A stretch of DNA of 64,000 bases. It comes from Escherichia coli (GTDB lineage: Bacteria; Pseudomonadota; Gammaproteobacteria; Enterobacterales; Enterobacteriaceae). Shown here one piece after another: positions 4,038-57,283 of this stretch. Under the pieces are notes generated by a model. That model worked only from the letters and a program-made list of their open reading frames with translations, searched no databases and was not told where the DNA came from. Position 1 is the stretch's first letter. Each line of letters opens with the position of its first letter. The translations under genes and the position numbers were made by a program. Where the stretch lies: NCBI RefSeq assembly GCF_016026235.1, contig NZ_CP065613.1; one strand, given 5' to 3'.

Positions 4038-4132
4038 GGAAGATCGTCGTCTCCGGTGAGGCGGCTGGACTTCAAATCCAGTTGGGGCCGCCAGCGGTCC
4101 CGGGCAGGTTCGACTCCTGTGATCTTCCGCCA
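4038..4132 (+). tRNA. selC: tRNA-Sec (selenocysteine tRNA)
   Basis: 95-nt sequence GGAAGATCG...TTCGACTCCTGTGATCTTCCGCCA with a long variable arm and encoded CCA; recognised as E. coli selC. Confidence 0.95.
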
Positions 4133-23029: not shown

Positions 23030-23170
23030 ACAAAAAACCCCGCCGGAGCGAGGTTTCGTCAGCCGCCTGCGGCTGGTAACCGCAAAGCACACTGTATTAT
23101 GTCAACACTGAAAGTATACCTGTTCCGCGCAGAACGCGCAATTTCGGCACGAATTTTGACGTATTTAGTA
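23030..23170 (-). ncRNA. istR: IstR antitoxin sRNA region (IstR-1/IstR-2); 5' ends approximate
   Basis: Minus-strand hairpin plus U6 terminator near 23032-23053; contains a ~21-nt block (23087-23110) repeated upstream of tisB; sits divergent from a LexA-boxed promoter. Confidence 0.5.
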
Positions 23171-37569: not shown

Positions 37570-37983
37570 TTAGTTGATTTCGATACGGCGCGGTTTTTTC
37601 GCTTCCGGAATCACGCGTTCGAGATCGATATACAGCAAACCATTTACCAGGTTAGCGCCACGAACATGAATGTTCTCAGCTAACTGGAATTTGCGTTCAA
37701 AGTTGCGTTCAGCGATGCCCTGGTACAGATAGGTGCGCTCTTTTTGTTCGTCGGCGTGAGCACCTTTCACCACCAGAAGATTATCCTGGGCGGTAATTTC
37801 CAGTTCGCTCTCAGCAAAACCAGCCACAGCGATAGCAATGCGGTAATGGTTTTCGTCTACCAGTTCAACGTTATACGGAGGATAGCCGCCATTACTCTGG
37901 CTCTGGTTGTTTTCTAAGTGGTTAAACAAACGGTCAAATCCAATAGCAGAACGGTAAAGCGGGGATAAATCAAAGTTACGCAT
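37570..37983 (-). CDS. ibpA: small heat-shock protein IbpA
   Basis: 137 aa from [20 protein letters not shown]... Confidence 0.9.
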
Positions 37984-38078
37984 AATCAATAGCTCCTGAA
38001 ATCAGCGAGAATGTAAGACCTTCCACAATGGACAGGTCAGGTAGCCAGAACACCCATCAGGCGCGTCCTCATCGGCTA
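37984..38078 (-). promoter_or_regulatory. ibpA 5' UTR (~100 nt), reported site of a ROSE-like RNA thermometer
   Basis: Long leader between the sigma-32 promoter and the start codon with the SD inside a predicted stem; the fold was not computed. Confidence 0.45.
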
Positions 38079-44173: not shown

Positions 44174-45035
44174 GAGCGATGCTCCTTATACCAGCCTGAA
44201 ATGCCGTGTCGCCCGCCACCGCCGTCACGTCGCAACCCATCGCCTGAAAGGCTTGCTGGTAGCGCGCGGTCAGCGATGTTCCGGCGACAAGGGTGATGGC
44301 GTGTTGATGGGTCACATAGTCGCGCATACTGGCAACCTCTGCGCCAATCAACAAACCAGAGAGAAATTCGCTGACCTGTTCGCGGGGAAGTGTTCCCAGC
44401 ACATGCGAGGCGCGAACTTCAAAAAGCTGCGGCAATATGGCGGGCGCATTAAGGCCGCGCTCAAGGCCAGCCGCGAAGGCATCGGCAGAGTTTTCCTGCG
44501 GCGGCAAACCTGCGCCAATCAATGAGTGATTTAACAGTAAATGATGTAATTCACCGGTCATCACGGTGCGAAAATCGTTGATTTGCTGGCTATCGGCCTG
44601 CACCCATTTGCAATGCGTACCGGGCATAACATAAAGAGAGGAAGGAGCCAGAGCTCGCGCGCCGATCAATTGTGTTTCTTCGCCGCGCATCACATTGTGG
44701 TTATCGTCATGAGAGACGCATAATCCGGGAATAATCCAGATATTGTCGCCAACAGACGTTAATTGTTCGCCAATAGACGAAAAACGGGCAGGAACAGATA
44801 AATACGGAGCAACTTTCCAGCCGACATTGCTGCCGACCATTCCTGCCATCACCACTGGCGTATTTTCTTCACGCCAGTCGGTCGTGACTTCTGCTAACAC
44901 CGCAGCCGGAGATTTTCCGTTCAGGCGCGTGACGCCTGCTTCTGATTGCCTGCTCTCCAGGCAGTGGTCGCCCTGATAAAGCCAGGCGCGCAGATTGGTC
45001 GATCCCCAGTCAATTGCGATGTAGCGAGCTGTCAT
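44157..45035 (-). CDS. dgoK: 2-dehydro-3-deoxygalactonokinase
   Basis: 292 aa; overlaps dgoA by 17 nt and dgoR by 4 nt. Confidence 0.9.
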   Translation of the reverse strand: MTARYIAIDWGSTNLRAWLYQGDHCLESRQSEAGVTRLNGKSPAAVLAEVTTDWREENTPVVMAGMVGSNVGWKVAPYLSVPARFSSIGEQLTSVGDNIWIIPGLCVSHDDNHNVMRGEETQLIGARALAPSSLYVMPGTHCKWVQADSQQINDFRTVMTGELHHLLLNHSLIGAGLPPQENSADAFAAGLERGLNAPAILPQLFEVRASHVLGTLPREQVSEFLSGLLIGAEVASMRDYVTHQHAITLVAGTSLTARYQQAFQAMGCDVTAVAGDTAFQAGIRSIAHAVAN

Positions 45036-45721
45036 GTGATTTCCTTTAACCTTCGTGTCGAGCTGGCGATCATGGTAAGCGCCGCCTGCTCTGCCGCATC
45101 GCCGTCCTGATGCCGTATTGCATCGAACAGCGCCTTATGTTCCTGGAGCGTTTGCGGCATGTTGGCCTCATCGCCCATCCAGGTTCGTTCAAAAACCGCC
45201 CGCTGCAACGAACTGATCGCAATGCTAAGTTGCTGTAACACCGGGTTATGTACCGACTGCAGCACCGCCTCGTGGTAGCGAATATCCGCTTCGTTAAACG
45301 CTTCGCGGTCCTGATTGTTGGCAATCATCTCGTTCAGCGCCGATTCAATCTGCGCCAGATCGCTGGAAGTCGCGCGCTCTGCTGCCCAACGGGCAATCGC
45401 CGGTTCCACCAGATTTCGCACTTCGCTCATGGCACTGATAAGCCGTGGGTCGTAGTCGTTTTCCAACACCCATTGCAGTACGTCAGTGTCGAGGTAATTC
45501 CACTGGTTACGCGGTGCCACAAACGCCCCGCGATAACGTTTCATTTCAATCAGCCGCTTCGCCATCAGCGAACGGAACACCTCACGGATGATGTTGCGCG
45601 AGGTTGCAAACTCTTCACAGAGCTCCGCCTCAGCCGGAAGTGGCGAGCCAGGTACGTATTTGCCGTGAACGATCTGTTTACCCAGCGTAATGACAATGCG
45701 ATCGGTTTTATTGAGAGTCAT
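45032..45721 (-). CDS. dgoR: GntR/FadR-family repressor of the dgo operon
   Basis: 229 aa with N-terminal GntR HTH. Confidence 0.9.
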   Translation of the reverse strand: MTLNKTDRIVITLGKQIVHGKYVPGSPLPAEAELCEEFATSRNIIREVFRSLMAKRLIEMKRYRGAFVAPRNQWNYLDTDVLQWVLENDYDPRLISAMSEVRNLVEPAIARWAAERATSSDLAQIESALNEMIANNQDREAFNEADIRYHEAVLQSVHNPVLQQLSIAISSLQRAVFERTWMGDEANMPQTLQEHKALFDAIRHQDGDAAEQAALTMIASSTRRLKEIT

Positions 45722-45786
45722 GGAGAGTCCTTGTGCTCTGTATGTTCTTCTCTACTTTACCCCGATCGATGCATAACGCGGCAACT

Positions 45787-45861
45787 TTGTAGTACCAGCG
45801 TGATGACGTTCGCGTTTGCCGTGTGCGTAATGTAGTACAAACTTATATTGTTGTACTACAA
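45787..45861. promoter_or_regulatory. dgo promoter/operator region with three TGTA-N-TACA-type motifs
   Basis: TTGTAGTACCA (45787-45797), ATGTAGTACAA (45830-45840), TTGTACTACAA (45850-45861); the last two cores are reverse complements of each other. Confidence 0.6.
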
Positions 45862-45998
45862 TTTAGATCACAAAAAGAACAATGCATAAAAAAATGACAT
45901 GCGTCGGGCAGAAATCTGAAAAGGGATATCAGGCGCTAAACAGGAGGGAAAGAAGAGTATGCTTTCAACGGCTTAGCTACTCGTTTAAAGGATTAATC

Positions 45999-46655
45999 AT
46001 GAAGTTGAATTTTAAGGGATTTTTTAAGGCTGCCGGTTTATTCCCACTGGCGCTGATGCTTTCAGGCTGTATCTCGTATGCTCTGGTTTCCCATACCGCA
46101 AAGGGTAGTTCAGGAAAGTATCAATCGCAGTCAGACACCATCACTGGGCTATCGCAGGCAAAAGATAGTAATGGAACAAAAGGCTATGTTTTTGTAGGGG
46201 AATCGCTGGATTACCTTATCACTGATGGTGCCGATGACATCGTTAAGATGCTCAATGATCCAGCACTTAACCGGCACAATATTCAGGTTGCCGATGACGC
46301 AAGATTTGTTTTAAATGCGGGGAAAAAGAAATTTACCGGCACAATATCGCTTTACTACTACTGGAATAACGAAGAAGAAAAGGCACTGGCAACGCATTAT
46401 GGTTTTGCCTGTGGTGTTCAACACTGTACCAGGTCACTGGAAAACCTAAAAGGCACAATCCATGAGAAAAATAAAAACATGGATTACTCAAAGGTGATGG
46501 CGTTCTACCATCCATTTAAAGTGCGATTTTATGAATACTATTCACCCAGAGGCATTCCGGATGGTGTTTCCGCAGCATTACTGCCAGTGACTGTTACGCT
46601 GGACATCATTACTGCACCGCTGCAATTTCTGGTTGTATATGCAGTAAACCAATAA
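45999..46655 (+). CDS. yidX: putative lipoprotein of unknown function
   Basis: 218 aa from [24 protein letters not shown] (lipobox). Confidence 0.75.
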
Positions 46656-48146: not shown

Positions 48147-48244
48147 GCCGGATGCGGCGTGAACGCCTTATCCGGCCTACAAAAACATGCAAATTCAATA
48201 TATTGCAGGAGTCTCGTAGGCCTGATAAGCGTAGCGCAACAGGC
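48147..48244. repeat. two REP elements in inverted orientation (BIME)
   Basis: GCCGGATGCGGCGTGAACGCCTTATCCGGCCTAC and GTAGGCCTGATAAGCGTAGCGCAACAGGC. Confidence 0.65.
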
Positions 48245-52886: not shown

Positions 52887-54290
52887 TTACGATGACAATG
52901 TTCTGATTAAATTTGAAAAATCTTCTTTGATATCGTGGCTCTCTTCACGCAACTGCTCGATCTTACGGCAGGCATGAAGCACCGTCGTGTGGTCACGACC
53001 ACCAAACGCATCGCCAATCTCCGGCAGACTGTGGTTAGTCAGCTCTTTCGCCAGCGCCATCGCCATCTGGCGCGGACGCGCCACCGAGCGGGATCGACGC
53101 TTGGAAAGGAGATCCGCGACTTTGATCTTGTAGTACTCCGCCACCGTCTTCTGAATATTGTCGATGGTGACCAGTTTTTCCTGCAATGCCAGCAAGTCGC
53201 GCAGCGCCTCACGCACGAAGTCGATGGTGATCGCCCGTCCGGTAAAGTTGGCATTGGCAATGACGCGGTTCAGCGCCCCTTCCAGCTCACGTACGTTAGA
53301 TCGTAGACGCTTGGCGATAAAGAACGCCACTTCGCCCGGCAAACGAATGTCGTTTTCGTCGGCCTTTTTCATCAGGATCGCCACACGGGTTTCCAGCTCT
53401 GGCGGTTCGATCGCCACAGTCAGTCCCCAACCGAAGCGGGATTTCAAACGATCCTCAACGCCGTTGATCTCTTTCGGATAGCGATCCGAGGTGAGAATGA
53501 TCTGTTGATTACCTTCCAGCAGGGCGTTGAAGGTATGGAAAAACTCTTCCTGAGATCGTTCTTTATTAGCAAAAAACTGAATATCGTCGATCAGCAGTGC
53601 ATCTACGGAACGGTAGTAGCGTTTAAACTCTTCGATCGCGTTGTTTTGCAGGGCTTTAACCATGTCCTGAACAAAGCGCTCGGAGTGCATATAAACCACT
53701 TTGGCATTCGGCTTGCGCGCCATAATGCCGTTACCCACCGCATGCAGCAGGTGAGTTTTACCCAGACCCGTGCCGCCATAAAGGAACAACGGGTTATAGG
53801 CACCGCCAGGGTTATCCGCCACCTGGCGAGCCGCCGCGCGCGCCAGTTGGTTAGATTTACCTTCAACGAAGTTATCAAACGTGTGTTTGACGTTTACGTT
53901 AGAACGATAGGTCGGTTCTGCCGGGGCCGGGACGTTATCCCAACCTGAGCGCGTAGAAGGCGCAGCACGTTGCGGCTGCGTTTGCGCCACCTGTGCAGGG
54001 GCCGCGACGTTGCTCGTCACTGCCGCTTGTGGCGTTTGCGTCACCGGTTTGGTGCCGACTTCAAAACGCAGCTGTGGGGCATCCGCTCCGCAGAAACTGG
54101 TTAGCAGTCCATTGATATTATTAAGGTACTTGTCCCGTACCCAATCGAGGACAAAACGGTTTGGCGCGTACAGGGCCAGCGTGTTATCGCTCAGTTCCGC
54201 CTGCAATGGGCGTATCCACATACTGAATTCTGTGGCTGGTAACTCATCCTGCAATCGGGCAAGACACTGCTGCCAAAGCGAAAGTGACAC
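52887..54290 (-). CDS. dnaA: chromosomal replication initiator DnaA
   Basis: 467 aa from a GTG start ([13 protein letters not shown]...); AAA+ Walker [11 protein letters not shown]. Confidence 0.95.
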
Positions 54291-55636: not shown

Positions 55637-57283
55637 ATGGATTCGCAACGCAATCTTTTAGTCATCGCTTTGCTGTTCGTGTCTTTCATGATCTGGCAAG
55701 CCTGGGAGCAGGATAAAAACCCGCAACCTCAGGCCCAACAGACCACGCAGACAACGACCACCGCAGCGGGTAGCGCCGCCGACCAGGGCGTACCGGCCAG
55801 TGGCCAGGGGAAACTGATCTCGGTTAAGACCGACGTGCTTGATCTGACCATCAACACCCGTGGTGGTGATGTTGAGCAAGCTCTGCTGCCTGCTTACCCG
55901 AAAGAGCTGAACTCTACCCAGCCGTTCCAGCTGCTGGAAACTTCACCGCAGTTTATTTATCAGGCACAGAGCGGTCTGACCGGTCGTGATGGCCCGGATA
56001 ACCCGGCTAACGGCCCGCGTCCGCTGTATAACGTTGAAAAAGACGCTTATGTGCTGGCTGAAGGTCAAAACGAACTGCAGGTGCCGATGACGTATACCGA
56101 CGCGGCAGGCAACACGTTTACCAAAACGTTTGTCCTGAAACGTGGTGATTACGCTGTCAACGTCAACTACAACGTGCAGAACGCTGGCGAGAAACCGCTG
56201 GAAATCTCCACCTTTGGTCAGTTGAAGCAATCCATCACTCTGCCACCGCATCTCGATACCGGAAGCAGCAACTTCGCACTGCACACCTTCCGCGGCGCGG
56301 CGTACTCCACGCCTGACGAGAAGTACGAGAAATACAAGTTCGATACCATTGCCGATAACGAAAACCTGAACATCTCTTCGAAAGGTGGTTGGGTGGCAAT
56401 GCTGCAACAGTATTTCGCGACGGCGTGGATCCCGCATAACGACGGTACCAACAACTTCTATACCGCTAATCTGGGTAACGGCATCGCCGCTATCGGCTAT
56501 AAATCTCAGCCGGTACTGGTTCAGCCTGGTCAGACTGGCGCGATGAACAGCACCCTGTGGGTTGGCCCGGAAATCCAGGACAAAATGGCAGCTGTTGCTC
56601 CGCACCTGGATCTGACCGTTGATTACGGTTGGTTGTGGTTCATCTCTCAGCCGCTGTTCAAACTGCTGAAATGGATCCATAGCTTTGTGGGTAACTGGGG
56701 CTTCTCCATTATCATCATCACCTTTATCGTTCGTGGCATCATGTACCCGCTGACCAAAGCGCAGTACACCTCCATGGCGAAGATGCGTATGCTGCAGCCG
56801 AAGATTCAGGCAATGCGTGAGCGTCTGGGCGATGACAAACAGCGTATCAGCCAGGAAATGATGGCGCTGTACAAAGCTGAGAAGGTTAACCCGCTGGGCG
56901 GCTGCTTCCCGCTGCTGATCCAGATGCCAATCTTCCTGGCGTTGTACTACATGCTGATGGGTTCCGTTGAACTGCGTCAGGCACCGTTTGCACTGTGGAT
57001 CCACGACCTGTCGGCACAGGACCCGTACTACATCCTGCCGATCCTGATGGGCGTAACGATGTTCTTCATTCAGAAGATGTCGCCGACCACAGTGACCGAC
57101 CCGATGCAGCAGAAGATCATGACCTTTATGCCGGTCATCTTCACCGTGTTCTTCCTGTGGTTCCCGTCAGGTCTGGTGCTGTACTATATCGTCAGCAACC
57201 TGGTAACCATTATTCAGCAGCAGCTGATTTACCGTGGTCTGGAAAAACGTGGCCTGCATAGCCGCGAGAAGAAAAAATCCTGA
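55637..57283 (+). CDS. yidC: membrane protein insertase YidC
   Basis: 548 aa. Confidence 0.95.

Follow-up and report, generated by a model that had tools for sequence, protein, structure and literature searches.

Introduction

How many operators does DgoR use upstream of its own gene in Escherichia coli, and what would a third one do there? Among sugar-acid regulators of the GntR/FadR family, DgoR is to our knowledge the one that has been studied best, with operators that are textbook material in that field. In the published model, DgoR dimers repress the dgoRKADT operon from two closely spaced inverted repeats that overlap the dgo promoter and are released by D-galactonate (Singh et al. 2019, summarized in PMC11705089). 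The same two-inverted-repeat model is given in Fig. S1 of PMC12288454. The first repeat (IR1) is perfect and the second (IR2) carries one mismatch, and the group that characterized DgoR has described two repeats only, through 2025 (PMC11705089; PMC12288454). A comparative genomics study had listed a third site: the S1 File of Suvorova et al. (2015) contains three DgoR sites for E. coli b4479, of which CACGCTGGTACTACAAAGTTG is the third, and three sites each for E. fergusonii, Enterobacter 638, Cronobacter, Klebsiella, Shigella, Salmonella, and Serratia. This conserved third site, here called O3, is omitted from the two-repeat model of the experimental papers and constitutes the loose end addressed below.

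The dgo locus and its regulator

The window, the whole stretch of 64,000 nucleotides analysed here, is E. coli chromosome; its bases 45000–46100 are 100% identical to many complete E. coli genomes, in which dgoK, dgoR, and yidX are annotated at this place. The dgoR gene (45721..45032, minus strand; ATG at 45721), annotated under this name in RefSeq, is a repressor gene of the GntR/FadR family and the first gene of dgoRKADT. Its product consists of a GntR wHTH domain (Pfam GntR, 2.9e-14) and an FCD domain (2.1e-27), is matched by PDB 7c7e over its full length (E 3.7e-149), and has NanR as a detectable sequence relative. The genes that follow dgoR are dgoK, dgoA, and dgoD in this order; a DGOK domain was found in the next gene, and the NCBIfam models for DgoA and DgoD match. 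The cognate regulator expected for a FadR-subfamily operator, a GntR wHTH plus FCD protein, is encoded at the same locus as the galactonate catabolic genes.

Approximately 400 of 5,426 complete E. coli genomes were without the dgoR promoter. In two O157:H7 genomes among the matches listed, the alignment extended only from window position 45869 onward, with the breakpoint inside the CRP site described below. In O157:H7 strain 4276, cbrA adjoins yidX, and the entire dgoRKADT operon is therefore absent there together with the three operators.

Three palindromes upstream of dgoR

Read on the dgoR strand and numbered from the A of the dgoR ATG, the promoter region contains three related 11-mers. 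IR1 (TTGTAGTACAA, 45851..45861, minus strand, −140 to −130) is a perfect DgoR operator and lies within the published IR1 oligonucleotide (CTAAATTGTAGTACAACAATAT), which maps to 45844–45865 on the minus strand. IR2 (TTGTACTACAT, 45830..45840, minus strand, −119 to −109) is a DgoR operator with one mismatch at an outer position, and O3 (TGGTACTACAA, 45787..45797, minus strand, −76 to −66) is of the DgoR type with one mismatch at position 2. A first-pass annotation of this DNA had reported the core motifs of these sites, and all three were found in place (TGTAGTACA at 45831–45839, TGTACTACA at 45852–45860, and TGTAGTACC at 45788–45796). As it had also said, the first two, separated by 12 bp, are exact reverse complements; taken as 10-nt arms (TGTAGTACAA/TTGTACTACA), the IR1/IR2 repeats are 10 bp apart and perfectly complementary. 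The same annotation had put the third motif about 40 bp upstream. The distance holds (43 bp start-to-start from the nearer repeat), but the direction is true only on the plus strand: dgoR is on the minus strand, and the third motif is therefore dgoR-proximal and comes after the other two as transcription proceeds. Its assignment of the motifs to the GntR/FadR type of operator agrees with the sequences, since IR1, IR2, and O3 all keep GT-N3-AC and thereby fit the consensus of the FadR subfamily (TKGT/ACMA boxes with a 3-nt gap between GT and AC), among whose members DgoR is named.

A chance origin of this motif cluster is ruled out. The exact 9-mer TGTASTACA occurs three times in the 64 kb against 0.21 expected, a count reached in none of 100 shuffles, and TTGTASTACAA with at most one mismatch occurs four times against 0.51 expected, with three of the four copies lying within 75 bp. 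When the 277-bp intergenic region was subjected to 200,000 mononucleotide shuffles, any site with at most one mismatch appeared in 0.7% of them (P ~0.007).

Published operators and the inducible promoter

IR1 and IR2 are published, experimentally proven DgoR operators. Using Sort-Seq, Belliveau et al. (2018; PMC6003448) found a DgoR-dependent repressor site at −140 to −110 from the ATG, which corresponds to window 45831–45861, the coordinates of IR1 plus IR2. DgoR was enriched on the DNA of this site in DNA-affinity mass spectrometry, and the repressor signal was gone in a strain deleted for dgoR as well as in galactonate (PMC6003448). DgoR binding relieved by D-galactonate has been published for the fragment containing IR1 and IR2. 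Later EMSA work used a 55-nt probe, said to span the two repeats (PMC11705089); by our own reckoning, a probe of this length would not extend to O3. Reg-Seq mentions an "upstream site" and a "right site" of DgoR without coordinates, and a literature search for ChIP-exo, DAP-seq, and SELEX data on DgoR, including the PPTP-seq paper, yielded nothing on this regulator. The 21-mers of IR1, IR2, and O3 are all present in the site list of Suvorova et al. (2015). The autoregulated repression of the dgo operon by DgoR, which the first-pass annotation had put forward, is thus supported by the identity of the gene, the published binding to IR1 and IR2, the Sort-Seq result, and a third site that was listed in 2015 and is conserved. 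The cluster was already known; two of its sites had been validated experimentally and the third had been predicted by comparative genomics, so that the finding in itself is correct but ordinary.

The inducible dgo promoter, P1, is activated by CRP in the class II manner, with TGTGA at −160 to −140 and a non-optimal −10 element, TACATT (PMC6003448). On the window, this hexamer is located at 45829–45834 (minus strand), inside IR2, and the core of the CRP site, TGTGA-N6-TTGTA, is located at 45857..45872 (minus strand), where it serves as the class II activator site of P1 and overlaps IR1 with its right half. With the published elements mapped in this way, IR1 overlaps the right CRP half-site as well as the P1 −35 region, and IR2 overlaps the P1 −10. 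The class II geometry would place the P1 start near −101, and the centres of IR1, IR2, and O3 would then lie at about −34, −13, and +30, respectively, relative to this start. As the literature shows, DgoR dimers occupy IR1 and IR2, the centres of which are 21 bp, or two helical turns, apart. Because IR1 covers the P1 −35 and half of the CRP site and IR2 covers the −10, bound DgoR would exclude RNAP and compete with CRP. D-galactonate, again according to the literature, alters the conformation of DgoR so that the DNA is released, and cAMP-CRP then activates P1.

A putative second promoter adjoining O3

Belliveau et al. also observed a further RNAP site at −30 to −70, which is active in glucose (PMC6003448). 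The candidate elements of this second promoter, P2, occupy 45754..45784 on the minus strand and comprise a −35-like TTGCCG (45779–45784) and a −10-like TAAAGT (45754–45759) with a 19-bp spacer; the pair would fit the published second RNAP site. O3 ends 2 bp short of the TTG in TTGCCG. The P2 start would fall at about −26 from the ATG, and the O3 centre would be at about −45 relative to P2. We propose that P2 is a weaker promoter that may supply basal DgoR and that O3 abuts its −35 element. A scan of 45650–46050 with simple sigma-70 and terminator consensuses called no promoter and no terminator at its threshold. The real promoters are too weak for this threshold, and the promoter positions given here therefore rest on Belliveau et al. 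and on conservation.

The region contains two GATC sequences, one at 45866–45869, within TGTGATC of the CRP site and beside IR1, and the other at 45764–45767, between the candidate −35 and −10 elements of P2. In Salmonella, the GATC adenine at −147 of dgoR is hemimethylated, and dgoR shows a Dam-dependent ON/OFF heterogeneity; the GATC of the CRP site corresponds to this Salmonella GATC. By the published count, the Salmonella region has one GATC, and the second GATC of E. coli thus appears to be missing there.

Conservation of the operators and their spacing

The 200 bp upstream of dgoR were footprinted across 80 species of Enterobacteriaceae and Erwiniaceae, the loci of which were fetched with the DgoR protein. 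The average information content per column was 1.55 bits for the CRP site, 1.94 for IR1, 0.63 for the IR1–IR2 spacer, 1.76 for IR2, 0.50 for the IR2–O3 spacer, 1.62 for O3, 1.70 for the GGTAAAGTAG box at −41 to −32, and 0.41 for the remaining 5′ UTR. The three sites (1.6–1.9 bits) thus stand out from their spacers (0.5–0.6 bits), as would be expected of DgoR operators in a phylogenetic footprint. O3 forms a conserved island, and the information content falls directly outside its 11-mer. Within the 11-mer, the conserved columns read T.GTAsT.CAA; positions 3, 4, and 9 do not vary, and 5, 10, and 11 hardly do, just as in IR1 and IR2.

The spacing between the elements was also conserved. Centre to centre, the sites are separated by 21, 43, and 64 bp, corresponding to approximately 2, 4, and 6 helical turns. 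The distance between the IR1 and IR2 centres was 21 bp in all 80 species, and the TGTGA of the CRP site (45872..45868) kept a distance of 14 bp to the IR1 centre in 73 of the 80. The IR2–O3 distance was 43 bp in 71 species and 42 or 44 bp in the other nine, so that the helical phase is kept within ±1 bp in 80/80 species although the spacer itself is unconserved. From the O3 centre to the −10-like box, the distance was 35 bp in 77 of the 80 species, including seven of the nine with an IR2–O3 distance of 42 or 44 bp. Far greater variation was seen between the box and the ATG, with box centres between −30 and −38 in 78 species.

The three sites differed in their degree of perfection. IR1 was perfect in 74 of the 80 species, and IR2 carried one mismatch in 72 (at most one in 73). 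O3 carried one mismatch in 67 species and two in 11 (at most two in 78/80), and was perfect in none. In species counts that ignore kinship, position 2 of O3 was always non-T in the 16 species with the consensus A at position 8, and position 8 was always G or T in the 61 species with T at position 2. O3 is never a perfect palindrome because these two positions are strictly anticorrelated across the 80 species. The anticorrelation, again with kinship ignored, suggests that there is selection for a weak O3. To the earlier listing of O3, the present analysis adds the breadth of its conservation over 80 species, its rigid spacing, its never-perfect pattern, and its link to the P2 −10 box.

Within E. 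coli, O3 was identical in seven sequences with 93.7–100% identity in the promoter region, including K-12 and REL606, and the SNPs fall in the spacers. IR1, IR2, and O3 of K-12 are identical to those of the window, and the operators analysed here are accordingly those of the K-12 dgoRKADT operon (Singh et al. 2019; Belliveau et al. 2018; Suvorova et al. 2015), at the same locus and with the same sequences; for IR1 and IR2, no difference from the K-12 DgoR operators was found. The natural isolate E. coli EC67 has TTGTAGTGCAA in the place of IR1 (window 45851–45861), with an A-to-G change in the AC core. The same change marks O3 in most other genera, and it may weaken repression in that strain. 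One of the 80 loci (CACSKA010000004.1) carries the title "Chryseobacterium sp. 18061", and yet it is a typical enterobacterial dgoR locus with 90% protein identity and the IR1/IR2/CRP architecture; the assembly is probably mislabelled or contaminated.

Role of O3

There is little doubt in our minds about the overall picture, in which the autoregulated dgoRKADT promoter has its operator cluster in this region, with IR1 and IR2 as the published sites and O3 as an inferred auxiliary operator of low affinity. O3 itself is very probably a functional, weak auxiliary operator, because it forms a conserved island, is rigidly spaced, and was listed as a DgoR site in 2015. It would be a conserved and deliberately imperfect DgoR operator placed in the P1 leader, 43 bp (four turns) downstream of IR2. 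The most likely role of such a site would be to tighten autorepression, and it may do so by limiting P2, by serving P1 as a downstream anchor or roadblock, or by both. Since O3 is coupled more tightly to the P2 box than to IR2, a role directed at P2 is favoured. In the Sort-Seq experiments, an expression shift of the repressor type was seen only at −140 to −110 and not near −70, and P2 was active in glucose with DgoR present (PMC6003448); the repression exerted through O3 would therefore be weak or conditional.

Other regulators of the family show how additional sites can act. In the case of LldR, a member of the FadR subfamily, operators O1 and O2 flank the lldPRD promoter, and repression by DNA looping has been proposed. 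LldR resembles DgoR in being a FadR-type sugar-acid/organic-acid repressor that acts from multiple operators, including one that lies downstream of the start site; its dependence on angular orientation has a parallel in the spacing of the DgoR site centres by about 2, 4, and 6 helical turns. DgoR differs from LldR in having two adjacent strong sites over the core promoter and one weak distal site. DgoR is reported to be a dimer in solution by size exclusion (PMC11705089). With the protein reported as a dimer, cooperative looping between the operators is unsupported, and we did not group the locus with the looping systems of the lac, gal, or LldR type, whose repressors bridge their operators as tetramers or higher oligomers. 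NanR, likewise of the GntR/FadR type and a repressor of a sugar-acid operon, fills three sites at its promoter, binding its (GGTATA)3 operator as three dimers (PMC8012715). The NanR sites are contiguous direct repeats with cooperative assembly, whereas those of DgoR are separated inverted repeats.

The sequence patterns permit a further step, which we take only tentatively and regard as possible, not as probable. O3 may be kept sub-optimal and locked at 35 bp from the P2 −10 so that DgoR sets its own basal level through weak repression or activation of P2. If this is true, the published one-promoter, two-repeat switch would be replaced by an autoregulatory circuit with two promoters and three operators. 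If O3 is functional, a third operator and a second promoter would have to be included in quantitative models of dgo induction, of dgoR autoregulation, and of the gut-adaptive dgoR mutations.

Alternative explanations

It is improbable, in our estimation, that O3 is a chance or vestigial look-alike without function and that IR1 and IR2 alone matter. Such an explanation would agree with the repeated statement of the two-repeat model in the literature, with the lack of a repressor-type Sort-Seq signal near −70, and with the absence of a perfect O3 from all 80 species. However, the shuffling of the intergenic region gave such a site only rarely (P ~0.007), and in 80 species of Enterobacteriaceae and Erwiniaceae O3 stands as a conserved island, at a fixed spacing, with poorly conserved sequence on either side. 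Comparative genomics had moreover listed it independently as a DgoR site (Suvorova et al. 2015).

We give an equally small chance to the explanation that O3 is conserved as a part of P2, i.e. an upstream or −35-proximal element, or as the site of another factor, and not as a site of DgoR. The constant 35 bp to the −10-like box in seven of the nine species with a shifted IR2–O3 distance is consistent with this idea, as are the position of O3 next to the conserved TTG of the putative −35 and the extent of the published RNAP site (−30 to −70), which reaches the proximal half of O3. On the other hand, the conserved columns reproduce the DgoR palindrome T.GTAsT.CAA seen in IR1 and IR2, and conservation drops directly outside the 11-mer.

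DgoR bound at O3, at about −45 of P2, might also activate P2, in which case positive autoregulation would maintain a basal level of the repressor; we consider this slightly less probable still. For FadR, the sign of regulation depends on where the site lies with respect to the promoter, with activation of fabA from about −40 and repression of fadBA. FadR belongs to the same family as DgoR and recognizes the same TnGTnnnACnA-type palindrome, but activation by DgoR has not been reported. An activating role would be in line with the fixed position of O3 relative to the predicted P2 (35 bp to the −10 box), with the visibility of the P2 RNAP site in glucose, a condition in which DgoR is bound to DNA, and with the poor −35 and 19-bp spacer of P2, which are typical of activator-dependent promoters. 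Against it, the published activity of DgoR is all repression, and the P2 start site is itself a prediction.

Finally, it is hardly credible that the IR1/IR2 pair works through nucleic-acid structure (a cruciform, an RNA hairpin, or a terminator) instead of protein binding: the 10-nt arms are perfectly complementary and 10 nt apart, and the IR1/IR2 segment folds as RNA at −10.6 kcal/mol (z = −2.5), but each site is by itself a palindrome of the FadR-family type, the binding of DgoR is published, with EMSA and Sort-Seq data that contradict a purely structural reading, and the stem is A/U-rich with no T-run and was not called by the terminator scan. Readings at the RNA level were rejected: the hairpin is a modest one and forms no part of the P1 transcript, because the segment is located at and upstream of the P1 −10; the consensus structure that RNAalifold computed for the leaders of the 80 species was empty; and the fold of the E. 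coli leader is no better than those of its shuffles (z = −0.45).

Other features of the window

The motif occurs a fourth time, with the exact sequence of the IR2 11-mer (TTGTACTACAT), at 56942–56952 on the plus strand, approximately 11 kb from dgo. This copy lies inside yidC (ORF 55637–57283) in the coding context GCG TTG TAC TAC ATG CTG and is probably a coding-sequence coincidence. The dgoR–yidX intergenic region also contains a 13-nt direct repeat (GATCGATGCATAA/GAACAATGCATAA, 85% identical) at 45764–45776 and 45877–45889, the copies being 113 bp apart, which is probably a two-copy match by chance. Elsewhere in the window, Rfam matches at gathering score were obtained for tRNA-Sec (4038–4128, plus strand), istR (23032–23161, minus strand), the ROSE_2 thermoregulator upstream of ibpA (37977–38049, minus strand), the sRNA ES036 (48181–48223, plus strand), and AsdA, the antisense RNA of the dnaA mRNA (53700–53780, plus strand).
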